From an uncultured Candidatus Saccharibacteria bacterium (GTDB taxonomy: Bacteria > Patescibacteriota > UBA1384 > XYA2-FULL-43-10 > 1-14-0-10-43-13): a stretch of DNA of 32,000 nt. Of the stretch, positions 9,307 to 27,338 are shown in pieces (the first letter of the stretch is position 1; every line of letters starts with the position of its first letter). The translations under genes and the position numbers were made by a program. The stretch lies in assembly GCA_964543385.1 (NCBI GenBank), contig CAZIYE010000001.1:600001-632000 (forward strand). Direction: 5' to 3'. Under the pieces are notes generated by a model. The model worked only from the letters and a program-made list of their open reading frames with translations. It ran no database searches and was not told where the DNA came from.

Positions 9307-10647
9307 ATGGACGGACTTCAAGATGATATCCCGCTTGAAAATGATGCTAAGAGGAGCAAAGGCTTAAGACCATTTTGGTTTTGGACAGCCATAATCTGTT
9401 TTACTGTTGCTAATTATGTTCTATTCTATTTTTTCGCAAAATATCTCGTTCTATGGTTAATCGAAAAAATAGGATTAGTAGGCATTCTGTATATTGGTTA
9501 CTATGGAATATATCCTCTTTTAATTATATCCGCATTAACTGCATTTGCTACCTGGATTACCCTTAAAAAAAACTTTGTGGGTAAAAGGGCTGCCTATCTG
9601 TTGTTAGTTATCTATCTATCCATCTCATGCTATGCCATTTCTTACGCACATATTGCATTGGCCAATTATCACAACCGTTTAATTGTGAAGCAAAAAGTAT
9701 CTAAGTCTGTGCAGACCTATGGAGAGCACAAGATTACTAGTAATAGACAAGTTGTGAATACGGGCAACGCCAGTATTCAATCTTCATTATCGTCAAGTGG
9801 TATTTTTTCATGGGTTGGCCATGATGACACCGAACTAGAGAAAGGAAATGTAGATAACTTAGTCACTCTTACTATTGACGGTGACAAATATAATAAAGAG
9901 AAAATCATACAAAATGCTTCATCTGCAGTTATGTCTACGCAAAATAAGGTTTATTTTGTTAAAAATGATTTATTTGAGTATGATCTTAGAGCTAAAATCC
10001 AAAAGACTATTCTCTCAAATGTAGGGGACATCAAAAGTGAATATCAAGGAAGAATAGTATTGACTTATGGGGGCGTACTTTCTGTTTATGACACTGAGAC
10101 GGGGAGACTGAATGATATTTCAGCAGCTACGGCAGATCTCCTATCCGACAATGTCTTCTATGCTGGAAAGTATATTCACACAAAGGAACCGATTGGTCTA
10201 GACATAAGGCTAAGAAGATTTGACATTATCAGCCAAGTCAAAAAAGATGTTATAACAATTGAGAATGGCAAGCATCTTAATATGATAGCCTCAAATGATG
10301 ATTATAGTGTATATACTATTACCGATATAAATGGGACAAAATCAACATTTACTATAATCAGTAATGGTGATAACGCAGTAACATTTTCCGAAGAAGTTTC
10401 CGGCACTCCTAACTATCATGCGAAGGCTAAATTTATCGATAATATTTTGTATGTGACTGTCAGGGATGATAGTGACGGCAATAAATATAATATTGTAAAA
10501 ATTGATCCAAAAACATCGCAAAAGGATATGGTATTTCACCTGTCTGACAATGGGGCAGGAAGAGAAGACTGGGATACAGATGGCCAATACCTAATTTATT
10601 CTACTGGACTTTACGGAGATCTGATTCTAAGTCCAATCGATAAATAA
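9307..10647 (+). CDS. Hypothetical membrane-anchored protein (about 4 N-terminal TM helices plus ~300-aa beta-rich, propeller-like C-terminal domain)
   Basis: Long ORF with an AAGGA RBS. The N-terminus is hydrophobic. The C-terminal half has recurring beta-strand-like motifs (KVYFVKNDLFEYDL, LSVYDTETGRL, NILYVTVRDDSDGNKYNIVKIDPKT). I recognise no catalytic motif. Confidence 0.6.
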   Translation: MDGLQDDIPLENDAKRSKGLRPFWFWTAIICFTVANYVLFYFFAKYLVLWLIEKIGLVGILYIGYYGIYPLLIISALTAFATWITLKKNFVGKRAAYLLLVIYLSISCYAISYAHIALANYHNRLIVKQKVSKSVQTYGEHKITSNRQVVNTGNASIQSSLSSSGIFSWVGHDDTELEKGNVDNLVTLTIDGDKYNKEKIIQNASSAVMSTQNKVYFVKNDLFEYDLRAKIQKTILSNVGDIKSEYQGRIVLTYGGVLSVYDTETGRLNDISAATADLLSDNVFYAGKYIHTKEPIGLDIRLRRFDIISQVKKDVITIENGKHLNMIASNDDYSVYTITDINGTKSTFTIISNGDNAVTFSEEVSGTPNYHAKAKFIDNILYVTVRDDSDGNKYNIVKIDPKTSQKDMVFHLSDNGAGREDWDTDGQYLIYSTGLYGDLILSPIDK

Positions 10648-11305: not shown

Positions 11306-11328
11306 CGAATACTCCAATTAAATATTTC

Positions 11329-11943
11329 TTATCCTTTTAATTTCTTATAAATGAGAGCATCCGCCACCATGGATGTTGGTATTGTTGCAAAAAGGCCAAT
11401 GCCTAGCGCCAAGGCTCCCAAAAGGTTCATTCCGATCAAAGTGAGACCGAAAAGAAAGAGTTGCCACTTTTTCCCTTTAGTTATCCGGCTGCTCTCTTTC
11501 ATGGCGTCTATTGGATTCATTTGTTTATCAATAACTAAATATGGAGCCATAGAAAATTGAATAGCCCAGATGACACCTGGCACTACGAGTAGAACAAGCC
11601 CCGCCATAACTATTAAACTTATTAGAATAGAAAGAACTAAAAAGCTTAGATAATGAGTTGTAGTACCCTTTAAGCTATCCAATGAGAGCTTTTTGTTGTT
11701 AGCAGCGTCTAATGATATCTTTGCCGATGCTAATGTTACAAGTGTAGAGAGAAGCAACCCTATAATCACAAAAATACTTGTTGCAGGGTCCCCAATAGGC
11801 ATCTTTCTTGCAGAGGGATCTATGCCTTGAAGTATGGCAGCTACAATCATGAAGATAACAAAAAACCAAAAATTTTTCTTCATGATTCCCCAACCTGAAG
11901 AAATTACCTCTTTTATAGAAAAACTTTTCTCGCCCATAAACAT
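11329..11943 (-). CDS. Integral membrane protein (multi-TM, DUF975/UPF0259-like appearance)
   Basis: Opens with FSIKEVISSGWGIMKKNFWFFVIFMIV followed by several TM segments. The second ATG at 11937 has better SD spacing (AAAGG plus 6 nt). Confidence 0.6.
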   Translation of the reverse strand: MFMGEKSFSIKEVISSGWGIMKKNFWFFVIFMIVAAILQGIDPSARKMPIGDPATSIFVIIGLLLSTLVTLASAKISLDAANNKKLSLDSLKGTTTHYLSFLVLSILISLIVMAGLVLLVVPGVIWAIQFSMAPYLVIDKQMNPIDAMKESSRITKGKKWQLFLFGLTLIGMNLLGALALGIGLFATIPTSMVADALIYKKLKG

Positions 11944-12004
11944 CCTTTTTTATTTTAATTTATTATATTTTAATAATATTATAATTTAATTAACAATACT
12001 ATCT

Positions 12005-12871
12005 CTATTTAAGAGATAGTAGGATAATACCTGCCACGATAAGTGCGATAGCAAAATATTGTTTTGGCGACAATTTTTCCTTGTATACAAACCAGCCATA
12101 GATACAAACTACCAAAGGACTTGCAGCTGCTATTGCTGTCATAACGCTGAGAGAATATATCTTTATTCCCTGGTAGTATGATAATACTCCCAGAACAGAC
12201 AAAACAGCGATTATTAACACTGGTTTAATATTATTGTATGACGGTTTATCAACTTTCTCCTTACCTATTAGCATAATAATAAAAACTATTATAAGCATGA
12301 TCGTCTCTTCTAAATACGTTGTAAGTACGGCTCCCATTTCCATTACTGGTATTCTGATAAGAAAAAAATAAATTCCCCAGCCAATTGCTGCCAATATCGC
12401 GTAATAAATCCCGCTGGATTTTTGAAAAAGATGCGAATTTTTAAAATCTCTAAAATTTATTGATATCAAAAATATACCGCAGATGATGATTGTGATAGAG
12501 ATAATTTCAACCATTGAAAGACGGTCCTTGTAAACAGCCATAGCCAGGAAGGTTGTAAATATTGTGTAAATAGATGAAACAGGGCTGACTATACCAACTT
12601 TCCCTAAATCCATTCCTTTATAAAAAAAGTATAGAGGCCAGTAGCCAATAAACGAGATGGCAACAGTGATGAGAGTATATTTGAGGGAAAAGTTTGTAAA
12701 TTGCCCAGTGAACATAACAACAAAAAATAGAATAATAGACATGAAAACGCCGCGCCAAAACATAAGTTTATTTGGTCCAAAACTCTTTATGGGAACCTTT
12801 GAAATTGCGTTTCCAATGCCCATGAATATCAGGGAAGATATTCCGAGCAATAATCCTAGCTGACTATTCAT
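12005..12871 (-). CDS. DMT-superfamily (EamA-type) transporter
   Basis: About 10 TM helices arranged as two EamA-like halves. Its ATG abuts the stop of the upstream HD gene (TAA then ATG, no gap). Confidence 0.8.
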   Translation of the reverse strand: MNSQLGLLLGISSLIFMGIGNAISKVPIKSFGPNKLMFWRGVFMSIILFFVVMFTGQFTNFSLKYTLITVAISFIGYWPLYFFYKGMDLGKVGIVSPVSSIYTIFTTFLAMAVYKDRLSMVEIISITIIICGIFLISINFRDFKNSHLFQKSSGIYYAILAAIGWGIYFFLIRIPVMEMGAVLTTYLEETIMLIIVFIIMLIGKEKVDKPSYNNIKPVLIIAVLSVLGVLSYYQGIKIYSLSVMTAIAAASPLVVCIYGWFVYKEKLSPKQYFAIALIVAGIILLSLK

Positions 12872-13504
12872 TTATTTCTTGTTATCGATATTAATGTCAT
12901 ATTCTTTTTTCCATTCCCAGCCATGCTTTGCAAATTCTGGTTTCAGGCGTTCCTGCAGCTCTTGTAACATTGGGATTAACTCTGGAAATTTTTGTACTGC
13001 TTTATTAGGGTATGGAGCGATCAGTTCCGGATGGTCGAAACATTTATGACCTTTGCACAACATATGGTTTATACCTTCAATTTTATCTAGAGCTTTGACG
13101 AACCTAGCCTCTTTAGTCTTTGCTTCATCATATTCACGCCAGAGTTCGGCTAATTCTTGACCGCTTGATGCTGGAGCGATTTCTCTAATTTTTGTTATTG
13201 CATCAACCTCTAGGTCATGTTTTTCTTCTGGCGACTTAATACCAAAGGCAATCAAGGAGTAATCAGTATCACCGGCTAATGCTTCAACCAAGTCATGAAC
13301 AAGGGCTATTTTAACAGACTTTAGGACGTCGACGTTGAGCTTCATCTCATTGGCTGTAATAAAGGTTAGAAGGGCCAAATTCCAAGAGTGGTCGGCGCTG
13401 GACTCTTTCTTTTTCATCTCCTTGGTATGTAAAAAACGTTTTGTGGTCTTTAGTTTTTCAGATATTTCCAGAAGATCAAATAATTGTTTTATTTCCTGTG
13501 TCAT
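12872..13504 (-). CDS. HD-domain phosphohydrolase, YfbR-type (5'-deoxynucleotidase-like)
   Basis: ESSADHSWNLALL ... ALVHDLVEALAGD ... EYDEAKTKEARFVKALDKIE is the H...HD...D pattern of the HD_3/YfbR family. Confidence 0.8.
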   Translation of the reverse strand: MTQEIKQLFDLLEISEKLKTTKRFLHTKEMKKKESSADHSWNLALLTFITANEMKLNVDVLKSVKIALVHDLVEALAGDTDYSLIAFGIKSPEEKHDLEVDAITKIREIAPASSGQELAELWREYDEAKTKEARFVKALDKIEGINHMLCKGHKCFDHPELIAPYPNKAVQKFPELIPMLQELQERLKPEFAKHGWEWKKEYDINIDNKK

Positions 13505-13571
13505 TTGTTCTTAATATAACACAAAAATAGAGGAGTAAAAATAAAACTCTATTTTTCTTAGAACAAAAATG

Positions 13572-13603
13572 AAAAAAACGAAACCTTCCGCAGAAGCGGT
13601 TCT
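13572..13603 (-). terminator. Putative intrinsic terminator closing the long operon
   Basis: The minus strand reads GAACCGCTTCTGCGGAAGGTTTCG followed by T7. GAACC/GGTT(T)C and CCGC/GCGG pairings are possible. Stem quality is moderate. Confidence 0.45.
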
Positions 13604-13627
13604 GGTGTTTGCTGTTATGCTAGATGG

Positions 13628-13662
13628 CGGCGATGGGGGAGCATGATTGCCCTCCCATCGCC
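13628..13662 (-). other. GC-rich inverted repeat (stable RNA hairpin) in the 3' region of the zinc-ribbon gene transcript
   Basis: GGCGATGGG (13628-13636) and CCCATCGCC (13654-13662) form a perfect 9-bp pairing, with partial extension. No T-run follows on either strand. Confidence 0.5.
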
Positions 13663-13670
13663 TGATAGAA

Positions 13671-13847
13671 TCATGCAGTCACCTGCAGTGGCACATTCTG
13701 CGAGTAGGTCTTTGGAAGACCATGACCATCGCATATTGGGCAAGTGATGTCTCTTGCATCGAATACGTTCCCGCATTCTTCGCAGAGCTTATCGCCAGTC
13801 CCAACAGTTTGCTGACGGTTGTCAGCATCGGTGTCCATATTAGGCAT
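13671..13847 (-). CDS. Small zinc-ribbon protein, 58 aa (not in the supplied ORF track)
   Basis: GGAGG (13853-13857) lies 5 nt upstream of the ATG at 13847. My translation is MPNMDTDADNRQQTVGTGDKLCEECGNVFDARDITCPICDGHGLPKTYSQNVPLQVTA, with a TGA stop at 13671-13673. It carries CxxC-x10-CxxC. TATAAT lies on the minus strand at 13896-13901. The antisense track ORF 13647..13907 has a TTG start and no motif. Confidence 0.6.
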   Translation of the reverse strand: MPNMDTDADNRQQTVGTGDKLCEECGNVFDARDITCPICDGHGLPKTYSQNVPLQVTA

Positions 13848-13945
13848 GATGACCTCCTTCTGGTCTTCTCAAGCGCAACAGCTCAAATTCTCAAAATTAT
13901 AACGTAAAAAAGACTACCAGTATACAGTCAAAACTGTGGATAATG

Positions 13946-14263
13946 CTAAGAGTGCTTCTCGTTTATATTTTCCCAGTTCCAGTCTCTATTTTTATTCAAT
14001 TCCATCTTTTGTAATATTGCTTTTTCAACATCAATATTGAGAGCTGTGGCCAGATGGAGAGTCCGCTGAATTACATCACCTAATTCCTCTGCAAAACCAT
14101 CCTTGCCGTCAATGTTATTATGTCGGTATGCCTCATAAGCCTCTGAAACTTCCGAGTGGATCAAGGCAATCTTTTCAGCCACATTAATATCTTTTGGGTT
14201 TGTACCGAACCCCTTTTCTTTTGCTTGAATTAAAATTTTATTTTGCAACTCTTTAATTTCCAT
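13946..14263 (-). CDS. MazG-like nucleoside triphosphate pyrophosphohydrolase (single-domain, 105 aa)
   Basis: IHSEVSEAYEA (ExxE) and EELGDVIQRTLHLA (ExxD) match the all-alpha NTP-PPase metal motifs. Its ATG shares one base with the upstream stop (TAATG). Confidence 0.8.
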   Translation of the reverse strand: MEIKELQNKILIQAKEKGFGTNPKDINVAEKIALIHSEVSEAYEAYRHNNIDGKDGFAEELGDVIQRTLHLATALNIDVEKAILQKMELNKNRDWNWENINEKHS

Positions 14264-14805
14264 TAGAACCTTAACTCCTTAAATGAATGTAGATCGATCC
14301 CATAGCGTTTATAGATTGCGATCGTGCCTATATGGCCGGCATCCTTATTTTCTAACCCTAAGATCTTTAAGCCATTTTTTACTTCGGCTTCACTTTTTCC
14401 TTCGATCTCCATAATTGGCGGAATTTTGGGCCAAGTGTCAAAGACAAATTCCATATTGAGATATCTAAATTTGTGCCTTCTATTTTCCTGATAATATTTG
14501 CCTTTAAACGGCACCTTGGAGAGTATTTGTGCAGTCCTGTCAAAGTCATCAACCTCGACCTCTATCTCCGAAGTATCACTCATGCCTTTACCAACTTTAT
14601 TTTTATAGGTAATAATTGGTTTTTTGTCTCCGGCTTGACGTAGACGAATCCATTCACCCATATGGATATCATTACACGGATCGATATCAAAAATCCAACG
14701 ATGCTGGAAAACCTCTGGTTCCTCAACAGCTCCCAATTTTCGTAATTTATCTTTTATTTCCTCGACATCAAGATCGAGGATCTGAGTTTCAAATTCTTTT
14801 TCCAT
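14263..14805 (-). CDS. CYTH-domain protein (triphosphate tunnel metalloenzyme / CyaB-like)
   Basis: N-terminal EFETQIL is an ExExK-like motif with Q in place of K. Also WIRLRQAGDKKPIITYK, EIEVEVDD, and FVFDTWPKIPPIMEIEG. Confidence 0.72.
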   Translation of the reverse strand: MEKEFETQILDLDVEEIKDKLRKLGAVEEPEVFQHRWIFDIDPCNDIHMGEWIRLRQAGDKKPIITYKNKVGKGMSDTSEIEVEVDDFDRTAQILSKVPFKGKYYQENRRHKFRYLNMEFVFDTWPKIPPIMEIEGKSEAEVKNGLKILGLENKDAGHIGTIAIYKRYGIDLHSFKELRF

Positions 14806-14808
14806 AAT

Positions 14809-15450
14809 TCATAAATATTCTTTTAGCTCTTCTAGTCTATCAATAATTATATCAGGCTCGTAAGGCAAGAACTCTTCTCTAGAGGCAAAACCGGTTGTTA
14901 CTGCACAAGATGAGACACCTGATTCTTTTGCTGCCAGTACATCGTTTACATGATCACCTATATACATGGCCTCTGATTTATTAACTCCAAGTTCATTAAT
15001 ACATTGGATAATTCTTTGAGCTTTGCTGTGTCCAGAATTTGTCTCATAAACAGCAGAGAATTGGATGTCACAATTATTTTTATTTTTTATGACATCATCA
15101 ATAATTTCTTTTGTGTTGCCAGAAACTATACAGAGTTTAATATTGTTTTCTTGCCATTCTTTTAGGAGATTACGGCTCTCCAAGGAGACATCTTTATAAT
15201 GTCTGGTGCAATTGTCAATCAATAAATATTCAATTTCTTCTGCTGACAGGGGCGTCTCATTTATCTTCTTTGCTTTATGGGAATTTATCTTAAATGTTGC
15301 TCCCCAAAGTTCACTTTCTGGAATATCGCCAAAGGAGATATTATGGAGATCGCGCAGTTCTTTTCTCGCTTTCCTTGAAATATCTTTTGAATCAATTAAT
15401 GTCAGATCGAAATCAAATATTAATGCTTTGATACAACTCTTGTTTAGCAT
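14809..15450 (-). CDS. HAD-superfamily phosphatase
   Basis: IFDFDLTLIDS (DxDxT), a later VSGN motif, and GDHVNDVLAAK (GDxxxD). I prefer the internal ATG at 15450 (MLNKSCIKALIFDFD) over the track start at 15534. It still overlaps the upstream gene by 38 nt. Confidence 0.8.
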   Translation of the reverse strand: MLNKSCIKALIFDFDLTLIDSKDISRKARKELRDLHNISFGDIPESELWGATFKINSHKAKKINETPLSAEEIEYLLIDNCTRHYKDVSLESRNLLKEWQENNIKLCIVSGNTKEIIDDVIKNKNNCDIQFSAVYETNSGHSKAQRIIQCINELGVNKSEAMYIGDHVNDVLAAKESGVSSCAVTTGFASREEFLPYEPDIIIDRLEELKEYL

Positions 15451-16486
15451 GGTTTGTCCCAAATTCTTTGATAAATAATATCCTATTATTTGCCAGTTGG
15501 TCAGATGGTGATGTTTCAATAATATCATAACCATTACTTATTAAGTAAGCGAGCATGGCACGGCGATTGTTCCTCGTTTTGATTTTGAGACTCTTGTAAC
15601 CTTGTCTTTTTGCATATGCTTCCAAGTGCCCCATTAAAAGTTTGAGCATCCCTAACCGTCGGTATTTTGGTATTACCCCTGCCATCCAGCAGTAATAAGA
15701 ACCGTCTTTATCACGGTCATAGGCTACGATGTATCCAGCCGGCTGGCTATCTTTATGGGCAACCAATATAATCTCGTTTTTGCCTACAAATCTATCTTCA
15801 AAGTAGCTGGAATTAAATTTATGATCAAGGTCTGGTATCTGATTTGAGAGTTTTACAATCTCGTCTACTGTGCCAATTTCAATTCTTCCTGGCATACCGT
15901 ACATTCCATTAGCTTCCTTCTCTGCTCTCTCATTCATCAGAATATCCATTATTTCTTTCATAACAGGCTCTATTTCCAGATGGGGTTTCGCATACTCAAT
16001 AGTCTCAGGAATAGTATCTCCTTCGCGAAACCAATGAACTTTCTCTGCAACATTATACTGTAGGGAATAAATAAGTTTATCCAATCCTTTCACTATCTTA
16101 GCCTCAATCGTTTTTCCATCCTCATACTCCTCCCATATCTCTCGCATTTCCTCCGATAAATCATTGGGCAATATCGGGAATATTTTGTCGGCAGATGCAA
16201 TTTCATTTCGCCTTTTTTGAGCTTTTTCTTCTGCTGTAGTAACCCAGTCATCGCCAGTGTATATCTCTACAAGATCATGGACCAGAGCTAATTTTATGGC
16301 TCTATTAATATCAAACTTATTTTGAAATTCCTTTTCTAGAACCAAAACCATCATGGCTAAATGCCAAGAGTGTTGAGTATCATCCTCAATGGTTTTCTTG
16401 TCTGAGAGGTAGGGAACCCGCTGGATCAATTTCAGTTTCTCAATCTCTCTGACAAAGTCCAAGATTTTATTCAGTCTTTTATTCAT
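15413..16486 (-). CDS. Fusion protein: N-terminal YfbR-type HD phosphohydrolase plus C-terminal GNAT acetyltransferase
   Basis: HD half: DDTQHSWHLAMMV ... ALVHDLVEIYTGD ... EYEDGKTIEAKIVKGLDKL. GNAT half: AGYIVAYDRD...WMAGVIPKYRRLGMLKLLMGHLEAYAKRQGYKSLKIKTRNNRRAMLAYLISNGYDI. I prefer the ATG at 16486; the track uses the TTG at 16495. Confidence 0.8.
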   Translation of the reverse strand: MNKRLNKILDFVREIEKLKLIQRVPYLSDKKTIEDDTQHSWHLAMMVLVLEKEFQNKFDINRAIKLALVHDLVEIYTGDDWVTTAEEKAQKRRNEIASADKIFPILPNDLSEEMREIWEEYEDGKTIEAKIVKGLDKLIYSLQYNVAEKVHWFREGDTIPETIEYAKPHLEIEPVMKEIMDILMNERAEKEANGMYGMPGRIEIGTVDEIVKLSNQIPDLDHKFNSSYFEDRFVGKNEIILVAHKDSQPAGYIVAYDRDKDGSYYCWMAGVIPKYRRLGMLKLLMGHLEAYAKRQGYKSLKIKTRNNRRAMLAYLISNGYDIIETSPSDQLANNRILFIKEFGTNHAKQELYQSINI

Positions 16487-16491
16487 TTTAT

Positions 16492-16905
16492 TCAAATTAT
16501 TTTCTCATCAATAAGCATCTGTTTGTGATCAAAAGCCAAATTCATATTTCTAATTTCAGACGGAAGAAACCAAACAAGCTCAGAAACTTCCCTCGGTTCT
16601 AGTATGAAATTATAATCTCTCAATTTGCATCGGTGGGGGAGGCATATTACAGTTTTTGTCGGATGACGTCCGATAGCGTCGTAATATTTACCAGTATATT
16701 CTATATCATATATTTCCTGACCGATCTCTTCTTGTACTTCACGTTTTAGAGCGTCTTCGACACTTTCGCCCCATTCTACCATGCCTGAAACAAGGCCCCA
16801 CATGTTCGGGTATGCTTTCGATGTTTCACTTCTTTTTATTAACAGAATCTTATCATCATCATTTTGGATAATTGCATCTACACCAATATAGGGGTGATCA
16901 TTCAT
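16492..16905 (-). CDS. NUDIX hydrolase
   Basis: Complete Nudix box GMVEWGESVEDALKREVQEEIGQ (Gx5Ex7REUxEExGU). TGA stop. It overlaps the upstream DMT gene by 8 nt. Confidence 0.87.
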   Translation of the reverse strand: MNDHPYIGVDAIIQNDDDKILLIKRSETSKAYPNMWGLVSGMVEWGESVEDALKREVQEEIGQEIYDIEYTGKYYDAIGRHPTKTVICLPHRCKLRDYNFILEPREVSELVWFLPSEIRNMNLAFDHKQMLIDEKII

Positions 16906-17821
16906 ATCGTTCCTTTAATTTATTACCTGTCTTCATACTCTCTTTTATAACCAGATAGTTAGCAATAAGGATAAGTGCTCCGCCTATTACTATGCTTGTA
17001 GTAATTAATTGGTGAAAAAAGATAGCAGCAAGCACAGTCCCTACTACTGGCTCTATCAACATAATAACTCCTGCATCGGCAGTCGGCACTTTTTTTGTGC
17101 CTTGAAGGTAACAGAAATGGTTAATAATAAAGGCGATAATGCCAAACGAGAAGATAACAATCCAAGCAATGGTACTTTTATCGAGACTAAAGCCAGTCAA
17201 TGCTGGGTTGGCAACGAAATTTTTTGCGATTGGAAAAGTTATTAAAATAATTATAATCATTATCCAGCTGCCTAAAACCATTGTTTCTATCGGTTTTACA
17301 CCTTTCTTCGAGAGATAGCTGCCAACAGAGACCCAACCTGATAAGAATATACCGCCAAGAAGTGCAACTAAAATCCCAATCAGACTTCCAACGCTTGTAA
17401 TATTCAAAGGATTCACTATTAAGACTACACCAGCAAGCACCATCACGCATGAAATGATATCTATCTTAGTAATCTTTTCTTTGAGAAATAACCAACTCGT
17501 CAAAGTTGTCCAAAGGGGCTGGACATAGAGGAGCAAGACAGTGATCGCAATAGAAGCACCGAGAATAGGAGCAGCAAATTGACAAAAATTTATCCCAGCT
17601 TCCACAAAACCATAAAGCAGCAATATAGGCAGAAGAGATTTAAGATTTTTCGACCGCTTTATAATAAAAAATAGTGGAGTGATAAATATCAAACTGAAGA
17701 GATAGGGGAAAGTGGAGATCTGGAAGAGAGAAAATCCCATATTAGCCAATATCTGTCCGCCGAAGACGATCATGCCGGAAATGATTCCTGAAATAATTAC
17801 AAATATGTAGCTACTAGTCAT
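16898..17821 (-). CDS. DMT-superfamily (EamA-type) transporter
   Basis: About 10 TM helices with a two-EamA-repeat layout and an ATG start. Confidence 0.8.
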   Translation of the reverse strand: MTSSYIFVIISGIISGMIVFGGQILANMGFSLFQISTFPYLFSLIFITPLFFIIKRSKNLKSLLPILLLYGFVEAGINFCQFAAPILGASIAITVLLLYVQPLWTTLTSWLFLKEKITKIDIISCVMVLAGVVLIVNPLNITSVGSLIGILVALLGGIFLSGWVSVGSYLSKKGVKPIETMVLGSWIMIIIILITFPIAKNFVANPALTGFSLDKSTIAWIVIFSFGIIAFIINHFCYLQGTKKVPTADAGVIMLIEPVVGTVLAAIFFHQLITTSIVIGGALILIANYLVIKESMKTGNKLKERYE

Positions 17822-17858
17822 TTTTGCCTATTATTAAATTAATTTTTTCTCTTTAGAT

Positions 17859-18791
17859 CTATAATGTCTCGTAAGTTTCTAGCTTTTTCTTTAGATCTCT
17901 ATTTTTTTCTGATCTAGTTACAAGCAATATACCAATAAATGCCAAGAGCGTGCCAATAATAAATCCAAAGGTTAGTTTTTCTCCCAACAAACTCATTGCC
18001 CAGATAATTGTAAATGTTGGCTGGAGGTAGAGGACTGTAGATGCTATTGATGGCGAGGAGTGTTTTATCGAATATTGATACATCAGATAATATCCGCCTG
18101 TCCCAATAATACCAACATAGAGAAGTGACAAGATTGAAGGTAAAGAGGGGAGATGGAAAAGATCAAAATTCTTGCCGATGGTGAATGGCAGTAGTAACAA
18201 CTGGATTAAAAATGTTGTTACTACAAAATAAACTGTGATGGCAATCGGTGAAAATTCATCATGTTGTTTCTTCGAGAGGACAGAGTATAAAGAATGAGAA
18301 CATACTGATACAAGAACTAGCAAATTACCAACAATATTTCCGTTTAGTGAAGATTTCCCGATTATCACCGGGAGCATAATTATCAAAAGTGCACCGATAA
18401 AACCAATTACAATTCCTATTTTTGCTCTCGTCTCAAGCCTTTCTTTTAGCAGAAAATAGGAAATAAGTCCTGCCAAAAGCGGTGAAAGCGTGTATATTAT
18501 TTGGGCTGAAGATGCCGTCGTTAATTTAACGCCAAAGATAAAAACAATAATATTAGCAGCCCCAAAGATAGATACAGGCAGGAGCTTTTTAAAATTCTTA
18601 AAAATTAGCTTTTCTTTTTGCATGTAGAAAACGGGCAGGAGAACAGCTAGGGCCAGAACAAGTCTAAAGAAAACAAAGGTAATCGGTTCAATCTCTCGGA
18701 GGCCAAATTTTGACAGAACAGAAACGCCCGCGCCGGCAATAGCGGTGATCAAGATAAGCAGAAATGATTTGTAATTTCCAAAAATTTTCAT
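17859..18791 (-). CDS. DMT-superfamily (EamA-type) transporter
   Basis: About 10 TM helices with a two-EamA-repeat layout. It lies 37 nt upstream of the next DMT gene. Confidence 0.8.
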   Translation of the reverse strand: MKIFGNYKSFLLILITAIAGAGVSVLSKFGLREIEPITFVFFRLVLALAVLLPVFYMQKEKLIFKNFKKLLPVSIFGAANIIVFIFGVKLTTASSAQIIYTLSPLLAGLISYFLLKERLETRAKIGIVIGFIGALLIIMLPVIIGKSSLNGNIVGNLLVLVSVCSHSLYSVLSKKQHDEFSPIAITVYFVVTTFLIQLLLLPFTIGKNFDLFHLPSLPSILSLLYVGIIGTGGYYLMYQYSIKHSSPSIASTVLYLQPTFTIIWAMSLLGEKLTFGFIIGTLLAFIGILLVTRSEKNRDLKKKLETYETL

Positions 18792-18825
18792 TTGATACCA
18801 ATAAATTGATCAGTTTTTAAATTAT

Positions 18826-19848
18826 TTAGTGCTTCATTATTTCTAATGACAATTTGTTATTTCTTACTTCAATTTTTGCAGTGCCACCGATAGGAAATGT
18901 GATCTTTGGATGGGTATGGCCAAAATCGGCATTACCAATGATTGGCAAGGTGCTTAATCCTCTGATATTTCTCAATATTTTTGTTAATTTCTTTATGTCA
19001 GGAGATCCTAGTTTTTGGAATCTCCCAATTAACAGACCTCTTGCCCTAGAGAAGTCCGGTAATTGCGTTAAGGATACCAAATTTCTTTCGAATTCAACAT
19101 CAGTATATTCTCCAGCTGTGGCATCCTCTTCTATGAATAGTATAGTGTTCTTGAGCCTTGGCATGTATTTTGTGCCTTGCAGCAGATTTAGCGAACATAA
19201 ATTTCCACCAATGATGGTTCCCGTAGCAGAGCCTCCCTGTATGGCCCACAATCCATCGTTTGTCAGCCATTTGCGATCTTCTACTCTTTCCCACATTCTT
19301 TTGTCATCCCATTCTTTGCTCGCAATTATCTCAAATGGTTCTTCACTGAATAAACATTTTTTGAAATAATCGGCGTCGTATTTGTTATCAATTCCACTGC
19401 CCATCGAAGAAAACGAAGGGCTAGAATAAGTAACTAGACCGGTCATTTTAAAAATCGCATTGGACAAAACGGTGATATCTGAAAAACCCCCAAAAATCTT
19501 TGGGTTATTTCTGATGATTTTCCAATTAATATAAGGTAAAAGCTGATTAGAATTATATCCTCCGGTTGCAGTAATTATTGCTTTTACATTCGGATCGAGA
19601 AAAGCCTGATGTAGATCCTCAAGTCGATGCTCTATAGTAGAACTTCGAAATTCGTCCATTTCCCTTGAATGTTTGCCAAAACTGACCTTAAGGCCCATTT
19701 CCTCAAAACGTCTTAAAGATTCAGTAATTTCTTTATCCTTCATTTTTGACAAAGAAACAGCTGGGGCAATGATTCTTATTTCATCACCCGTATTCAATTT
19801 TTTGGGTAATATTGTTTTCATTTTTTTAAAATAACTAAGCATAACCAT
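18826..19848 (-). CDS. Peptidase S66 family: LD-carboxypeptidase LdcA / microcin-C immunity MccF-like
   Basis: ITATGGYNSNQLLPYINW, nucleophile region GGFSDITVLSNAI, and C-terminal NADFGHTHPKITFPIGG. The start is uncertain: ATGs at 19848, 19842 and 19821. Confidence 0.8.
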   Translation of the reverse strand: MVMLSYFKKMKTILPKKLNTGDEIRIIAPAVSLSKMKDKEITESLRRFEEMGLKVSFGKHSREMDEFRSSTIEHRLEDLHQAFLDPNVKAIITATGGYNSNQLLPYINWKIIRNNPKIFGGFSDITVLSNAIFKMTGLVTYSSPSFSSMGSGIDNKYDADYFKKCLFSEEPFEIIASKEWDDKRMWERVEDRKWLTNDGLWAIQGGSATGTIIGGNLCSLNLLQGTKYMPRLKNTILFIEEDATAGEYTDVEFERNLVSLTQLPDFSRARGLLIGRFQKLGSPDIKKLTKILRNIRGLSTLPIIGNADFGHTHPKITFPIGGTAKIEVRNNKLSLEIMKH

Positions 19849-20029
19849 CTATATGATCACCTTTACCGGGTTCATCCGGGCCTTTTTGTAGTTCTGTTTG
19901 GTCTTCGTTCTCTTTTCTTTTTTGATCTGGCGACGGCTGATCTCTGTCTTTATCTCTAGGTATCGCTGGAATAGGTACAATAGGTGGCACTGGACCTATG
20001 CCCTAACCGCCGAAACTAAATGGTTCCAT
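19835..20029 (-). pseudogene. Small ORF with strong SD, interrupted by an in-frame TAG after 8 codons (MEPFSFGG*), continuing as a Pro-rich/charged 55-codon frame
   Basis: AAAGGAGAAAT then ATG at 20029. TAG at 20003-20005. The same frame stays open to the TAG at 19835-19837: GIGPVPPIVPIPAIPRDKDRDQPSPDQKRKENEDQTELQKGPDEPGKGDHIDGYA. The region is about 45% GC by hand count. It is not in the ORF track. Confidence 0.35.
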
Positions 20030-20055
20030 ATTTCTCCTTTTTAACTGCTAATTTT

Positions 20056-20084
20056 AGATTAACGTTAATGGGACGCCAATTCAA
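20056..20084 (-). promoter_or_regulatory. Putative promoter with overlapping 12-bp perfect palindrome (operator-like)
   Basis: On the minus strand: TTGAAT (20079-20084), 17-nt spacer, TAATCT (20056-20061). The palindrome ATTAACGTTAAT at 20058-20069 covers the -10 and spacer. Confidence 0.35.
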
Positions 20085-20124
20085 TATTTAGTATGTTCAG
20101 AAAGAAAATATCTCTCTCCTCACA

Positions 20125-20940
20125 TTAACTTTTATCTAAAAAGTTATAAATTTTCTCGCTTAATATGTCAGAATTATTGATGACTATTATATGATTTGCC
20201 TGAGGTATTATATCTAGGATAGATTTATCAACTAAACCATTTATTTCTACAGCTTTGTGGATGCCGAATACTTTATCGTCCTCACCGTGAATTATCAGGA
20301 CGGGGACATTAATATTTTTGAGTGCTTCTCTTCCATCAAACTGAGCAATGTGTTGATATGTAAAAAGCCAGGAACGGAACGTCGTATGAGATATATCAGA
20401 ATAAATCCTTTCCACATTCAGGTCTCCTGTTCCTATAAATTTATCAAAATCCACATGATTAAAATTTGTCCTGTCTAAGAATCTTGTTTGCAATAGAAAA
20501 TTAAAAATTGGCAGTATTGGAGATCCGAGTAGTCGGACCGCTTTTAACCTTTGTGGTGCCTTTGAGGTAGTGTCTATTAAAATATATTTTGCGGCAATAT
20601 TGGGGTAAAGTTTCTGAAATTCCATTGTCACCATTCCACCAAAACAATGTGCAATTATTACAAAGTCAGTTACTTTTTCCTTATCTAGTACTGCTTTGAT
20701 ATCTCTGGCAAAATTATCTAGATGGTAATCATCTAGTCTGGATGGTCTATCTGACAAACCATGGCCACGTAAATCTATGGCTAATGTTGAATACCCCTTA
20801 TCTTGGAAGAAATTAACTTCACTGTTCCAAGCTGTTAGATCACCACCAGCACCATGGATGAATACTAAAAATTGTTCGCTTTTTAGACGTTTTATTGAAT
20901 AGTTAATATGAGCGCCGTCAAAACTTTTTATTTTTCTCAT
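20125..20940 (-). CDS. Alpha/beta-fold hydrolase with Cys at the nucleophile elbow
   Basis: HGAGGDLTAWN oxyanion region. Elbow IIAHCFGGMV (Cys where Ser is usual). IIHGEDDKVF (acid) and QANHIIV (His). Confidence 0.8.
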   Translation of the reverse strand: MRKIKSFDGAHINYSIKRLKSEQFLVFIHGAGGDLTAWNSEVNFFQDKGYSTLAIDLRGHGLSDRPSRLDDYHLDNFARDIKAVLDKEKVTDFVIIAHCFGGMVTMEFQKLYPNIAAKYILIDTTSKAPQRLKAVRLLGSPILPIFNFLLQTRFLDRTNFNHVDFDKFIGTGDLNVERIYSDISHTTFRSWLFTYQHIAQFDGREALKNINVPVLIIHGEDDKVFGIHKAVEINGLVDKSILDIIPQANHIIVINNSDILSEKIYNFLDKS

Positions 20941-20946
20941 TAGAGT

Positions 20947-23307
20947 TTAATATCCTTTATTTTCGATTATAATCTCGAGCAGTTCTCGTGGATAAATGGA
21001 TGGTTTTTCTGCCAATCCTTGATGGTAGAGGACAGTAGATGGTGTAAGACCGGGCAAAGTATTCACCTCTATTACCATAATATCACCAGTTTTTGTATCA
21101 ACGAAAAGGTCTATTCGGGCATAGCCTTCGATGCCAATCTTCTCGGCAAATTTGCCGACTATTTTCTTTACTTTATTCAACTCTTTTTGCGAAATAATAG
21201 TTTCTGGCGGAGGAGTAATATTTACGCCTGTGCCACCCTGGAACTTTTCTTCGACTGTTAGGAATTCTCCTTCGGCCACTGTCAGACTTGGATTTAGCAC
21301 CCTTATCTTCCTTTTTTCGCCGATAACCCCCACAGTTGTTTCTATTTTACCGCCCTTATCTTTATGGATGAGCTGATTGCCTTTGACGGAGACTGCATCA
21401 GTTTGGATAAATTCTTCAAGCAAAAAATGTTTTGTTTCCTCTTGTGGCAGGTCAATAACCTCTTTTTGATTCTTGAAAGTGTTTTTAGGAATTACTGCCA
21501 ATCCTAATTTATTTAGTTCGAGATATTTCTCCAGGTCTTTTGCTGAGTATAGTCTGGCGACCCCTGATGAACAACCATCGCCAAGAGGCTTTATTATCAG
21601 AGAACTTGTTCCAAATTCCCGACAAGTCTCGATCCAAGATTTTTGAATATCTTTTTTCTGGATTAATTTAGCTGGTTCGATAACTCTTTTCTTAGCTGTA
21701 TTGAGACCATCTATCTTTAGTTTCTTGATAAATTCTCCGGTAGCAAATTTGTCCATACAGAGATTAGACACTTTCGATCCTGAGCCATTATATTTTACTT
21801 TTAAGCCATCTAGTAATTTTTGTATTGTGCCATTTTCACCGATCCCACCATGCAGAGCGAGGAAGATAAATTTTGAATTTTTGATAAATTCATTCAAAGT
21901 GGCTTTTTTGGGAATGAAGAACTGCTCGGTCATTATGTCTTCGTCTATAGAGAGTCTTGCTTGTACTTTTTTCTCCAACATTCTTAATCTTTCCTCGTCA
22001 GCAGGAGCTTTCTCACAATTTTCTATAATTTCCTCAACTGTATGGTTGAGAGTTAGTGCATAAGGCAATTCCCAAACATTTCCTTCTCCGTCTAACAGAA
22101 ATGGTTTAGGGTTATATTTTTCAGATTTCTTTAACTTCAGCCATACATTCGTGCCACTCATCAGAGAAACCTGACGCTCAGAGGTTGACCCTCCAAAAAT
22201 AATGTTAACTTCTTTACGGTTTTTTATTTCCTTTATTTTCAGAGAAGGAGCGGAGATATTGTAATTACTGCAGGCATGTTTCAGGATGTAATTTAAGACG
22301 CTTTGATGGGAAAGGCCGACTCGTGATGATTGTTGAAAAAGAAAACTATTTTGCTCCATGCCGCTTATCGGATTGAAATCAGAGAACCAAATTTTCCCGT
22401 CAGGGAAAACCCAGCCATCAAAACGAGCGAAGTCTCTCATCCCAAGGGCTGAGAAAAGTTGTTCTGCCTGGACCTGAATTGTTTCTATCATCTGATTATC
22501 AAAACGTGGAGGGCAATGATATGTTACTTGACGAGTTGGCAAATACTTTTTACGGAAGTCAAATATTTGGTGTTCGGCATAATCAGTCTCAATTTCAGTT
22601 GGTAATATTGCTACGGGAAGATCATATTTATTTTGTAAAATTATGACCGTAAATTCACGACCTGTTGCAAATTGTTCTATAACTACTCGTGTATCCATTC
22701 GCTTTGAAAAAAGCATCTCTACTTTTTCTAGCGCTTCTTCGGGTGTAGACACAGAGAATACGCCGATACTTGATCCTCCTGTTGCAGGTTTTACTACCGC
22801 TCTCTTTATATCATGTTGTTTGAAAAATTTCTGGATAATTTCTTTATGATCTTTGTGATAGATCTTTAGAACTGTCGAAGGCAGGACATAGAAGCCAAGT
22901 TTTTTAATAAATTCGTTTGCCTTAAATTTGTCAAAACAGCGTTTGCATGCCCCAGAACCAGTGCCAATAAAAGGGATTTTGTTTTTTTCGAGAAATGACT
23001 GTACTTGGCCATCCTCGCCAAATTTACCGTGCATTGCTGGGAAGGCGATATCACACTTCTTCAATTCTTCTATAAGCTCTGATTCGCTGAGGGTGGTTGC
23101 AGTTTGCTGCAATTTAAAATCAAAGTCTGAGGGGGTATTAGAATAGAGCTGAGCCTTCGAAATCTTGTAGGCTTTTCCCTTATAATCATAATAAAAGGGG
23201 ACGACCTCTATCTGATCGCTTTCCAAATGATCCATAACAGATCGGGAAGAATTTAGGGAAATTCCTCTTTCTAATGAAGGACCGCCACAAAGTAATGCTA
23301 TTTTCAT
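20947..23307 (-). CDS. ddl: Tandem double D-alanine--D-alanine ligase-family protein (two ATP-grasp Ddl modules, 786 aa)
   Basis: Module 1: MKIALLCGGPSLERGISLNSS, HGKFGEDGQVQSFLE, VVKPATGGSSIGV, FARFDGWV...SDFNPISGM. Module 2: VNIIFGGSTSERQVSLMSG, LHGGIGENGTIQKLLD, IIKPLGDGCSSGV, YARIDLFVD...IEVNTLPGLTPSTV. I prefer the ATG at 23307; the track uses the TTG at 23316. Confidence 0.82.
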   Translation of the reverse strand: MKIALLCGGPSLERGISLNSSRSVMDHLESDQIEVVPFYYDYKGKAYKISKAQLYSNTPSDFDFKLQQTATTLSESELIEELKKCDIAFPAMHGKFGEDGQVQSFLEKNKIPFIGTGSGACKRCFDKFKANEFIKKLGFYVLPSTVLKIYHKDHKEIIQKFFKQHDIKRAVVKPATGGSSIGVFSVSTPEEALEKVEMLFSKRMDTRVVIEQFATGREFTVIILQNKYDLPVAILPTEIETDYAEHQIFDFRKKYLPTRQVTYHCPPRFDNQMIETIQVQAEQLFSALGMRDFARFDGWVFPDGKIWFSDFNPISGMEQNSFLFQQSSRVGLSHQSVLNYILKHACSNYNISAPSLKIKEIKNRKEVNIIFGGSTSERQVSLMSGTNVWLKLKKSEKYNPKPFLLDGEGNVWELPYALTLNHTVEEIIENCEKAPADEERLRMLEKKVQARLSIDEDIMTEQFFIPKKATLNEFIKNSKFIFLALHGGIGENGTIQKLLDGLKVKYNGSGSKVSNLCMDKFATGEFIKKLKIDGLNTAKKRVIEPAKLIQKKDIQKSWIETCREFGTSSLIIKPLGDGCSSGVARLYSAKDLEKYLELNKLGLAVIPKNTFKNQKEVIDLPQEETKHFLLEEFIQTDAVSVKGNQLIHKDKGGKIETTVGVIGEKRKIRVLNPSLTVAEGEFLTVEEKFQGGTGVNITPPPETIISQKELNKVKKIVGKFAEKIGIEGYARIDLFVDTKTGDIMVIEVNTLPGLTPSTVLYHQGLAEKPSIYPRELLEIIIENKGY

Positions 23308-26662: not shown

Positions 26663-27214
26663 CTATCTGATATTTGCCTTATTGTTTAATTCATAAATCA
26701 GTGTGGCATAACCCTTGGATATCTGATCATCCTTTTTTATACCCAAAGTCTCCAAAAATTCAAACAATTCATTTTTAATTCTTCCCGTGTCTTTCTCGGT
26801 GGTCATTCTTTCTACTTCAACAAAGAAACCCAATCCTTCTATGTCATCAAGGCAGATTTCCATGTTATTATGTTTACCCTTGATTCTTTTTTTGGACACA
26901 CATAAAACTTCATGAAAGCCTAATAATTTCAGCATTTCATTTGCTTGGTCGGGGCTATCGATGACAAGCTCGTGTTCAATATTTTCAAATTCGGTATCCA
27001 ATTGTTCTTTGATTGTAAAAATATGCTTACCATTGGAATTTCTGATTCTAGCAAAAAGTGTTCCTTTTGTTTTGTCTGGAAATTCTACTCCAATAGGAAG
27101 ATATATTCTGTCTTTTTGAATTAATGGTTCAGAAAAAACACAACCTAACTTAGTTAAATTGGATTGAATTTCTGCAAAACCCGAAACCTTTGCTTTAATC
27201 TCTACTTCTGTCAT
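26663..27214 (-). CDS. CYTH-domain protein (CyaB-like class IV adenylyl cyclase / triphosphatase family)
   Basis: Starts MTEVEIKAKV (canonical ExExK), then ARIRNSNGKHIFTIK and GFFVEVE. The first 34 codons of the track ORF are the translated tRNA gene and are excluded. Confidence 0.75.
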   Translation of the reverse strand: MTEVEIKAKVSGFAEIQSNLTKLGCVFSEPLIQKDRIYLPIGVEFPDKTKGTLFARIRNSNGKHIFTIKEQLDTEFENIEHELVIDSPDQANEMLKLLGFHEVLCVSKKRIKGKHNNMEICLDDIEGLGFFVEVERMTTEKDTGRIKNELFEFLETLGIKKDDQISKGYATLIYELNNKANIR

Positions 27215-27250
27215 AAAATAAAGTCTTAATAACAAAATTCCTTTTCTAAC

Positions 27251-27338
<88 letters not shown>

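Follow-up and report, generated by a model that had tools for sequence, protein, structure and literature searches.

Whether a dense run of phosphohydrolase genes in a bacterial chromosome forms a functional unit, and to what end, is the question raised by a 32,000-nucleotide stretch from an uncultured Candidatus Saccharibacteria bacterium (assembly GCA_964543385.1, contig CAZIYE010000001.1, positions 600,001 to 632,000; referred to below as the window, with coordinates counted from its first letter). An unbroken co-directional array of minus-strand genes spans 20940 to 10763 and encodes members of the NUDIX, HD, HAD, CYTH and MazG superfamilies together with an S66 peptidase, a GNAT acetyltransferase domain and DMT/EamA transporters. 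A preliminary description of the sequence had taken part of this array to be a 6.5-kb operon and had offered three functions for it: nucleotide salvage, immunity to aminoacyl-nucleotide antibiotics, or defense by nucleotide depletion. We consider, with moderate confidence, that the array is a vertically inherited set of house-cleaning and salvage phosphohydrolases acting on nucleotides and organic polyphosphates, accompanied by DMT transporters and located at a gene-turnover hotspot in an ultra-small genome of the Candidate Phyla Radiation (CPR).

The ten minus-strand open reading frames (ORFs) described earlier are all found at their reported places, and a profile-HMM check put the S66, two EamA, NUDIX, HD-GNAT, HAD, CYTH and MazG assignments above the Pfam family cutoffs used for all family calls; identical coordinates were obtained when genes were called independently on Logan assemblies of this organism. 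The window itself is ordinary chromosome of the Patescibacteria (CPR) type, occupied by housekeeping genes. The frame consists of RNase J, FtsK, RecA, RecX and phosphoenolpyruvate (PEP) synthase (PpsA), followed beyond the array by a tandem D-Ala-D-Ala ligase (Ddl-Ddl), alanine racemase (Alr), DnaG and RpoD; an ABC-2 transporter, a histidine phosphatase and a second CYTH protein are also encoded, and no mobility gene was found among the annotated genes of the window. Homologs of the array proteins carry Patescibacteria or CPR annotation, and the longest contig with these proteins measures 671 kb.

The array was compared with five related loci, reached via the HD-GNAT, CYTH and S66 proteins and with orthology mapped by tblastn: L089, L005, L006 and L007 from close relatives and L175 from CPR2. 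Counts out of six below refer to these bacterial loci and include the window. The window order is alpha/beta-hydrolase (Abh), then S66, DMT1, DMT2, NUDIX, HD-GNAT, HAD, CYTH and MazG, then the small zinc-ribbon gene Zn58, then the second HD_3 gene (HD2), DMT3, DUF975 and a hypothetical gene. With the identity of the first HD to that of the window in brackets, L089 (85%) has NUDIX, HD-GNAT, HAD, a low-complexity ORF and CYTH, then Zn57, then HD2, a replaced DMT3, DUF975 and the hypothetical gene; L005 (74%) has DMT2, CutA1, SDR, HD-GNAT, HAD, CYTH and a second CYTH, then a Cys-rich ORF, then HD2, DMT3, DUF975 and the hypothetical gene; L006 (64%) has Abh, DMT2, an HD-HAD fusion, HD2 and DMT3, with MazG between recX and recA; and L007 (61%) has Abh, CYTH, HAD, a small ORF and HD, then a Cys-rich ORF, then an HD-HD protein and DMT3. 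L175, for which the comparison is made with CYTH (63%), has DMT, CYTH, HD_3 on the opposite strand, and DMT. The same chromosomal frame and the same core are thus present in L089, L005, L006 and L007, despite the changed gene order in L007, where CYTH, HAD and HD stay adjacent after the rearrangement. HD_3 and DMT genes are universal across the six loci, CYTH and HAD each occur in 5/6, GNAT in 3/6, NUDIX in 2/6 and MazG in 1/6. The second HD_3 is the most conserved member of the array, with orthologs of 65-93% identity in each of the four close relatives and one of 40% in CPR2; DMT3 has orthologs of 39-76% identity in L005, L006 and L007. The CYTH/HD_3/DMT group of L175 (1-3380) lies 4-8 kb from genes for dihydroorotase, orotidine monophosphate (OMP) decarboxylase and dihydroorotate dehydrogenase (DHODH) with its Fe-S subunit, a loose link of this locus to nucleotide metabolism through pyrimidine de novo synthesis.

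Around this core the genes turn over rapidly. The NUDIX position is taken by CutA1 and SDR in L005; the clusters of L089, L005 and L007 lack MazG, and the MazG between recX and recA in L006 is 33% identical to that of the window. S66 and DMT1 are found in the window only: no S66 stands at the equivalent position in L006 or L007, and DMT1 gave no tblastn match in L005, L006, L007 or L175 and has no ortholog in any related locus. Since DMT1 lacks orthologs and Abh abuts the hydrolase genes in L006 and L007, the segment comprising S66, DMT1 and the 276-bp spacer is best read as a lineage-specific insertion; a search for flanking repeats around S66 and DMT1 found none. At the DMT3 position of L089 (4364-5233), a 35%-identical gene stands between flanks of 70-93% identity, which indicates an in-place replacement by a paralog or xenolog. 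The combination of S66, HD-GNAT, NUDIX, CYTH and MazG emphasized in the preliminary description is therefore not a conserved one, and of the supposed 6.5-kb operon only DMT2, HD_3, HAD and CYTH recur across the five related loci, together with the second HD_3 and DMT3. That description had also held that scattered homologs would count against a functional unit. The relatives fall between the two outcomes, with a syntenic sub-core of HD_3, HAD, CYTH, the second HD_3 and DMT, and a full combination that is not syntenic.

Gene fusions tie part of this sub-core together. The HD-GNAT fusion is confined to proteins P0001-P0005, all of at least 73% identity; the relatives that follow them are HD-HAD fusions or stand-alone HD proteins. 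In the HD-HAD fusions P0006 (72%) and P0008 (64%) the linker ERAEKEA.G is the same as in the window's HD-GNAT protein and is followed by HAD instead of GNAT. Because the two kinds of protein share this linker, HD, GNAT and HAD make up one tightly coupled module. Independent GNAT-HD fusions, in the reverse order, occur in Actinoallomurus. The synteny of the sub-core and the HD-HAD and HD-GNAT fusions therefore favor a shared role in nucleotide or phosphate metabolism.

The clustering of phosphohydrolase families is beyond chance. The background was taken from 80 metagenomic loci around homologs of the S66 peptidase (47-54% identity, median GC 37%), in which immediate (±1) neighbors (n=124) were compared with genes at least six positions away (n=150). 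The 150 far genes of these CPR-like loci include no more than one gene each for NUDIX, HD_3, CYTH and MazG and two for HAD, so that these families make up at most 4% of genes; the array has six phosphohydrolases in 13 genes, against fewer than 0.6 expected by a rough estimate from the far genes.

The hydrolases of the array retain intact catalytic motifs. The Nudix box GMVEWGESVEDALKREVQEEIGQ is intact in translation, G-MVEWG-E-SVEDALK-RE-V-Q-EE-I-G-Q (consensus GX5EX7REUXEEXGU), and the closest structures of the NUDIX protein are NudI and NudG, which are (deoxy)nucleoside triphosphate ((d)NTP) pyrophosphohydrolases. H39, H70, D71, E74 and D136 of the first HD domain are invariant in 23 relatives, and both HD_3 domains keep the metal and catalytic residues; their Protein Data Bank (PDB) matches are 3KH1, HDDC2, YGL101W and YfbR. 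The score against the YfbR equivalog of NCBIfam, the source of all equivalog tests here, is 39.7, with a cutoff of 122, and the HD_3 domains are thus YfbR/HDDC2-type by family membership only. The HAD protein is a COG0546-type phosphatase with the DxDxT motif present as FDFDLT, and the MazG-like protein matches SSO3215 and MazZ in the PDB, both weakly. The GNAT domain matches Acetyltransf_1, _7 and _10 in Pfam, and its PDB relatives are all weak: YqjY, a polyamine acetyltransferase, streptothricin acetyltransferase, Naa50 and RimI (entries including DpA and 3pp9).

The CYTH protein has the triphosphatase SaTTM (Saci_0718) as its closest structure. In thiamine-triphosphatase-like CYTH proteins the Trp of a WxRxR motif stacks on the substrate ring (PMC8233210). 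This motif is present in 116 of 120 homologs (P0241-P0360) and reads W52-I-R54-L-R56 in the window, a motif-level match to the ThTPase type. A CyaB-type adenylate cyclase was considered and rejected: in class IV adenylate cyclases an HF motif stands at the N-terminus, four residues ahead of ExExK (PMC8233210), and the absence of HF from all 120 homologs (0/120) argues against cyclase activity. The N-terminus MEKEFETQ is too short for HF, and the TIGR00318 score is 39.7 against a cutoff of 57.95. Like SaTTM and the CYTH-HD systems, the window's protein has the triphosphate-tunnel fold, and its position beside HD phosphohydrolases echoes the reported CYTH-HD fusions; unlike them, it has ExExQ with WxRxR and is a separate gene beside HAD and HD_3. 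Both the CYTH-HD fusions and a role of CYTH at the nucleotide/phosphate interface have been published (PMC8233210; Iyer & Aravind 2002 cited therein). The CYTH subfamily, of about 180 aa, is common to CPR (CPR2, Howlettbacteria, Parcubacteria) and to DPANN archaea (Micrarchaeota, Diapherotrites, Woesearchaeota) at 50-63% identity; in a DPANN archaeal locus (L176) the CYTH gene stands alone. This identity is unusually high for a bacteria-archaea pair and suggests inter-domain transfer among ultra-small symbionts. The second CYTH gene of the window probably starts at the Met at 27214; its ortholog in L005 (45% identity) directly adjoins the first CYTH gene, so the two were probably once adjacent.

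Judged from family membership, substrates, reaction order and transport direction can be proposed as follows. NUDIX and MazG would convert (d)NTPs or damaged (d)NTPs to the monophosphates ((d)NMPs) and pyrophosphate (PPi); the CYTH tunnel enzyme would take a phosphate off a triphosphate, for which WxRxR suggests an organic triphosphate with an aromatic ring; the two HD_3 enzymes and HAD would strip the remaining phosphomonoester or PPi; and the DMT carriers would move uncharged products or precursors across the membrane. The ancestral core would comprise Abh, DMT2, HD_3, HAD, CYTH, the small Cys-rich gene, the second HD_3 and DMT3, to which the lineage of the window would have added a GNAT domain between HD and HAD, NUDIX and MazG and, most recently, S66 and DMT1 with the 276-bp spacer. 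This reading is favored because the closest characterized homologs are all nucleotide or polyphosphate hydrolases (NudI/NudG, YfbR/HDDC2, SaTTM, MazG-like), because a DMT-CYTH...HD_3-DMT group recurs in CPR2 near pyrimidine-biosynthesis genes, and because a 671-kb source contig fits a host-dependent small genome. It is further favored by the confirmed families with intact catalytic motifs in a frame free of mobility genes, by the syntenic core and by a family density far above background. Of the functions suggested in the preliminary description, the salvage pathway is the one that the syntenic core and the fusions fit best.

The house-cleaning hydrolases of Escherichia coli and its relatives include MutT/NudI/NudG, MazG, the HD-type 5'-deoxynucleotidase YfbR and HAD nucleotidases such as YjjG. 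The window has the same five superfamilies with catalytic motifs intact, but, unlike in model bacteria, where the genes are scattered, six of them lie within 13 consecutive genes, accompanied by three DMT carriers and with HD fused to either GNAT or HAD. A resemblance to the phage Z-genome module MazZ/DatZ/PurZ is weak: MazG matches MazZ (7ody, E = 0.007) and HD matches DatZ (6zpa, E = 0.007), but these matches are marginal, no PurZ is present, and the window is chromosomal and non-viral.

Several points weigh against a house-cleaning and salvage role. All NCBIfam equivalog scores of the array proteins are far below their cutoffs, and their substrates are predicted at family level. The hallmark ExExK of the CYTH protein has Gln for Lys in the window, with both Glu residues present; among the 120 homologs, 65 have Gln and 31 have Lys. 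The HAD protein might just as well hydrolyze a sugar phosphate, phosphoglycolate or PPi, and the high variability among close relatives could mean that there is no common pathway. S66, GNAT and Abh are hard to place in a simple series of dephosphorylations, and degrading nucleotides looks counter-productive for a scavenger, unless it serves sanitation or inter-conversion. Finally, among 60 usable HD_3 loci from phyla outside CPR (taken from the matches listed, with 20 high-GC loci left out), no immediate neighbor of HD_3 is HAD, NUDIX, CYTH, MazG or GNAT; the neighbors there include Peptidase_M29 (14), DUF6142 (8) and similar families, and the association of HD_3 with these hydrolases is on this account clade-specific.

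Features of the array and of its surroundings in the window
Feature	Coordinates	Strand	Evidence and remarks
Tandem D-Ala-D-Ala ligase (Ddl-Ddl), 789 aa	20947..23316	-	two complete D-Ala-D-Ala ligase modules in tandem; relatives 762-786 aa; alanine racemase nearby
Alpha/beta-hydrolase (Abh), 271 aa	20125..20940	-	Pfam Abhydrolase_1 101 bits; orthologs 59-64% identity in L006/L007, directly upstream of cluster
Spacer, 276 bp	19849..20124	-	sigma-70-like site, palindrome, mini-ORF, 51-aa open stretch
S66 peptidase, 331 aa (alternative start 19848, giving 340 aa)	18826..19821	-	Pfam Peptidase_S66 124 bits, S66C 92 bits
DMT/EamA transporter 1 (DMT1), 310 aa	17859..18791	-	Pfam EamA 163 bits
DMT/EamA transporter 2 (DMT2), 307 aa	16898..17821	-	Pfam EamA 93 bits; orthologs 75% identity in L005, 45% in L006
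NUDIX, MutT-type, 137 aa	16492..16905	-	Pfam NUDIX 79 bits; only ortholog in L089, 84% identity
HD_3 (YfbR/HDDC2-type)-GNAT fusion, 357 aa	15413..16486	-	Pfam HD_3 132 bits, Acetyltransf_1 41 bits
HAD-IA phosphatase, 213 aa	14809..15450	-	Pfam HAD_2 71 bits; orthologs 38-66% identity
CYTH / triphosphate-tunnel metalloenzyme, 180 aa	14263..14805	-	Pfam CYTH 28.8 bits (cutoff 23.2); orthologs 51-89% in L089/L005/L007, 63% in CPR2
MazG-like, 105 aa	13946..14263	-	Pfam MazG 22.8 bits against cutoff 22, borderline
Zn-ribbon unit	13505..13945	-	TATAAT-containing block, Shine-Dalgarno (SD) site, 58-aa ORF (13671-13847), hairpin and T7 (13598-13572)
Second HD_3 (YfbR-like), 210 aa	12872..13504	-	Pfam HD_3 119 bits; 35% identity to first HD
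DMT/EamA transporter 3 (DMT3), 288 aa	12005..12871	-	Pfam EamA 131 bits; begins directly after second HD gene
DUF975 membrane protein	11329..11943	-	Pfam DUF975; kept in L005, L006, L089
Hypothetical, 184 aa	10763..11317	-	last co-directional gene of array; kept in L005, L006, L089
446-aa protein	9307..10647	+	no Pfam match; between array and PEP synthase
Second CYTH	26663..27316	-	classical ExExK (TEVEIKAK); listed GTG start overlaps tRNA-Ser(GGA) 27251-27338

The limits of the supposed operon, 20084 to 13572, are not borne out as boundaries: same-strand genes continue downstream (the second HD_3, DMT3, DUF975 and the hypothetical gene) and upstream (Abh and the tandem Ddl). The putative promoter, a sigma-70-like site at 20079-20051, scores 9/12 in a region with 39 such sites against 35.3 in shuffles, and the accompanying 12-nt palindrome, ATTAACGTTAAT (20058-20069), does not recur; the window has 14 such palindromes where 11.3 are expected. 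At the other end, the T7 terminator can be recognized as a hairpin with a T7 run at 13598-13572 that is kept in L005, although the hairpin is weak (-9.3 kcal/mol, z = -0.4); a simple scan of 11000-21500 gave 20 sites with a terminator-like hairpin and T-run where shuffles predict 6.5, and the majority of the sites lie inside coding regions. The junctions within the array are as described earlier: genes overlap by 8 nt at 16898/16905 and by 1 nt at 14263 (TAATG), gaps of 5 and 3 nt separate them at 16486/16492 and 14805/14809, respectively, and the 38-nt overlap at 15413/15450 is supported by a second, independent gene call that likewise gives a 213-aa HAD. Gaps are mostly 0 to about 35 nt over the whole window, however, and because the whole window is equally packed, tight junctions do not single out an operon. 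The array genes may be co-transcribed. Just beyond the array, the 446-aa plus-strand protein appears to be another lineage-specific insertion, since it is missing from that position in L005, L006 and L007.

The strong-SD mini-ORF upstream of S66 is present, with GGAG 5 nt upstream of an 8-aa reading frame, MEPFSFGG followed by a stop (20029-20003, minus strand). Past one TAG, which is also found in independent assemblies, it is in frame with a 51-aa low-complexity open stretch rich in Pro, Asp, Lys and Glu (19990-19835) that overlaps the longer S66 start. Together these may be the remains of a small gene that was disrupted, a leader peptide or a chance occurrence. Recoding of TAG was rejected, as TAG ends 6/30 genes. 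The 236-nt leader upstream of S66 shows no more structure than shuffled sequence does (z = +0.56) and matches nothing in Rfam; the idea that it is a decayed NUDIX domain was rejected, and its likeness to the small ORF L007_hyp66 is unconvincing.

A small unit just upstream of the second HD gene is syntenic in four genomes: the window, L005 (4767-5243), L007 (10607-11042) and L089 (3286-3738). It consists of a conserved block, an SD site, a Cys-rich small ORF and then a hairpin with a T-run. The 5' block, ATCCACAG ... TATAATTTTGAGAATTTGAGC, contains TATAAT and is kept in three genomes (window, L005 and L007, in an alignment of the gaps), and because this block precedes it, the zinc-ribbon gene is probably a separate unit. 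The 58-aa product shows the CxxC...CxxC pattern, but its Zn_ribbon_3 score lies under the cutoff. The Cys-rich ORF is hypervariable between genera (58, 82 and 72 aa), and the L089 ortholog is 78% identical with the CxxC core intact. The GC content of the unit is 46-53%, against about 36% nearby. A noncoding RNA was considered for this GC-rich gap and rejected: there is no Rfam match, and conservation of the CxxC core in L089 indicates that the gap encodes a small protein.

The strongest competing explanation, which we regard as unlikely but serious, is that the array is no functional unit at all: compaction of a CPR genome would have packed unrelated small housekeeping genes together at a spot that tolerates insertions, and the apparent theme would reflect the abundance of small hydrolases. 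The window is indeed packed and co-directional over about 17 kb, turnover is fast (NUDIX against CutA1 and SDR, MazG present or absent, DMT3 replaced in L089, S66 and DMT1 only here), and S66 has no fixed neighbors in the 80 loci. Mere packing is plausible for these accessory genes; it is hard to square with the HD-HAD and HD-GNAT fusions and with the adjacency of CYTH, HAD and HD that survived the rearrangement in L007, and it leaves aside the recurrence of CYTH, HD_3 and DMT in CPR2 and a phosphohydrolase density far above background.

A second alternative turns on the S66 peptidase. Under it the array would be a detoxification island against aminoacyl-nucleotide Trojan-horse antibiotics or toxic nucleotide analogs, with cleavage of the aminoacyl-nucleotide amide bond assigned to S66, acetylation of the amino group to GNAT, breakdown of the nucleotide to the hydrolases and export of the products to DMT. 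The PDB scores of S66 are 332 bits for Bacillus anthracis BA_5613, 309 for Listeria Lmo1638, 153 for B. anthracis MccF and 122 for E. coli MccF; LdcA entries score 69-86 bits with partial alignment only, as a central loop of about 55 residues (approximately 150-207) fails to align, and the NCBIfam LdcA equivalog NF008424 gives 102 bits against a cutoff of 378. The motifs GFSDIT, GHTHP and FIEED align with the MccF motifs and supply the Ser-His-Glu triad. Additionally, the loop Trp, within the sequence KRMWER, lines up with that in SINWEE of B. anthracis MccF, a position at least 90% conserved in 27 subfamily members. W186 of E. coli MccF stacks on adenine (PMC8323819), and by this alignment the loop Trp is predicted to be its equivalent. 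S66 is accordingly placed by sequence comparison in the MccF clade, not the LdcA clade, in a separate BA_5613/Lmo1638 subclade.

The immunity hypothesis of the preliminary description thus retains an MccF-clade S66 with its loop Trp, but otherwise fails: the analogy with MccE does not hold, and no linkage is conserved. Like the mcc operon (PMC8323819), the window has such a peptidase, a GNAT domain nearby and a strong-SD mini-ORF upstream; unlike it, the GNAT is unrelated to MccE2, S66 belongs to a separate subclade and S66, with DMT1, is a late insertion into the array, outside the conserved core. A PDB search with a profile of five GNAT domains returned no MccE entry, even at E<=10. No MccA-, MccB (ThiF-like)-, MccC- or MccD-type gene is found in the window, and the MccA peptide ends in Asn, whereas the mini-ORF product MEPFSFGG ends in Gly-Gly. 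Stand-alone MccF homologs are known. CPR genomes contain very many members of the subfamily (5278 matches at E<1e-30), usually labeled LdcA, and its near-ubiquity suggests a housekeeping role; for the BA_5613/Lmo1638 clade, no published report of activity was found in the literature searched.

Neighbors and fusions of S66 are likewise mixed. Across the 80 loci no fixed partner of S66 was found: among ±1 neighbors and far genes, respectively, NUDIX occurs in 5/124 and at most 1/150, GNAT in 4/124 and 3/150, and HAD in 2/124 and 2/150, with aminoacyl-tRNA synthetases (6), ASCH (4), Peptidase_C39 (3), HIT (2) and Ham1 (2) as other neighbors of the 124. The NUDIX, HIT and Ham1 neighbors could speak for detoxification, but the NUDIX enrichment is weak and GNAT shows none, so that the adjacency of S66 to nucleotide house-cleaning genes is at most a faint tendency. 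A NUDIX-S66 fusion, P0122, is 72% identical to the window's S66, and S66-NUDIX adjacency also occurs in L092 and L093; however, the NUDIX domain of P0122 is of a different subfamily from the window's, its contig is not syntenic with the window, and no second NUDIX-S66 fusion was found among the best 150 S66 representatives. An S66-NUDIX linkage was therefore rejected, on the basis of 5/124 near against at most 1/150 far over 80 loci. Single S66 fusions to an HD domain (P0384), a glyoxalase/bleomycin-resistance domain (P0418) and a C39-like peptidase were also seen (fused proteins P0384, P0418 and P0477). The rare fusions to NUDIX, HD and glyoxalase domains would suit detoxification, and the HD, glyoxalase and C39-like fusions, with the Peptidase_C39 neighbors, may hint at the S66 substrate; P0384 was rejected as a link to the array, its HD belonging to a different subfamily. 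On balance we judge a detoxification island to be improbable.

Slightly less probable still is a CPR-specific pathway, hitherto undescribed, in which the HD_3-[GNAT]-HAD-CYTH(WxRxR) core with S66 and DMT would dismantle host-derived conjugated or modified nucleotides. Candidate substrates include damaged (d)NTPs, amino-nucleosides and nucleotides with an aminoacyl or peptidyl group. In such a scheme the amino-acid part would be split off by the peptidase and a free amine capped by GNAT, with the phosphates removed by the hydrolases and the nucleoside carried by DMT. Were this pathway real, the occurrence of this CYTH subfamily in DPANN archaea would be a sign of an adaptation common to ultra-small episymbionts.

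It also seems quite improbable that the left part of the array serves recycling of cell-wall precursors or muropeptides, with S66 acting as an LD-carboxypeptidase-like enzyme on (UDP-)N-acetylmuramic acid (MurNAc)-peptides, NUDIX splitting the pyrophosphate of a UDP-sugar and DMT importing muropeptides. The locus adjoins the tandem D-Ala-D-Ala ligase and lies near alanine racemase, L093 has a YkuD L,D-transpeptidase nearby, and E. coli LdcA accepts UDP-MurNAc-tetrapeptide too. The window's S66 shares with LdcA its Pfam family, its proximity to Ddl and Alr and the LdcA label that sources usually give this subfamily, but it differs in much lower scores, a central loop that cannot be aligned and a missed equivalog cutoff; it is far closer to MccF-type proteins, and relatives with the same Ddl neighborhood (L006 and L007) lack S66.

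The remaining suggestion of the preliminary description, defense against phages by draining the nucleotide pool of infected cells, has no support and is very improbable: NUDIX, HD and MazG folds do occur in defense and counter-defense systems and the locus is a gene-turnover hotspot, but in PADLOC-DB 2.0, used as the defense test, 9/10 proteins have no match and NUDIX alone matches a candidate family, PDC-S07 (E = 1e-15), the HD is a small nucleotidase of the YfbR/HDDC2 kind rather than a dNTP triphosphohydrolase, the locus has no sensor, effector, toxin or mobility gene, and the core is conserved and vertically inherited in a housekeeping frame. The array is most likely a hotspot of nucleotide clean-up and salvage, rather than a new defense or antibiotic-immunity system.

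CPR bacteria, or Patescibacteria, are thought to depend on scavenged nucleotides, and to our knowledge the enzymes that sanitize and inter-convert their nucleotide pools are uncharacterized; the literature searched held nothing on CPR nucleotide-hydrolase clusters. The cluster can be regarded as a variant of the known house-cleaning phosphohydrolases, with a CYTH-HD link that is already in the literature (PMC8233210). Current ideas are not overturned; rather, annotation is refined, in that an abundant S66 subfamily routinely mis-annotated as LdcA is not LdcA and the CYTH protein is not an adenylate cyclase. For the biology of these bacteria, the locus offers a compact candidate set of two YfbR-like HD enzymes, one HAD phosphatase and one CYTH enzyme, together with three domain-fusion links, HD-HAD, HD-GNAT and, rarely, S66-NUDIX/HD.

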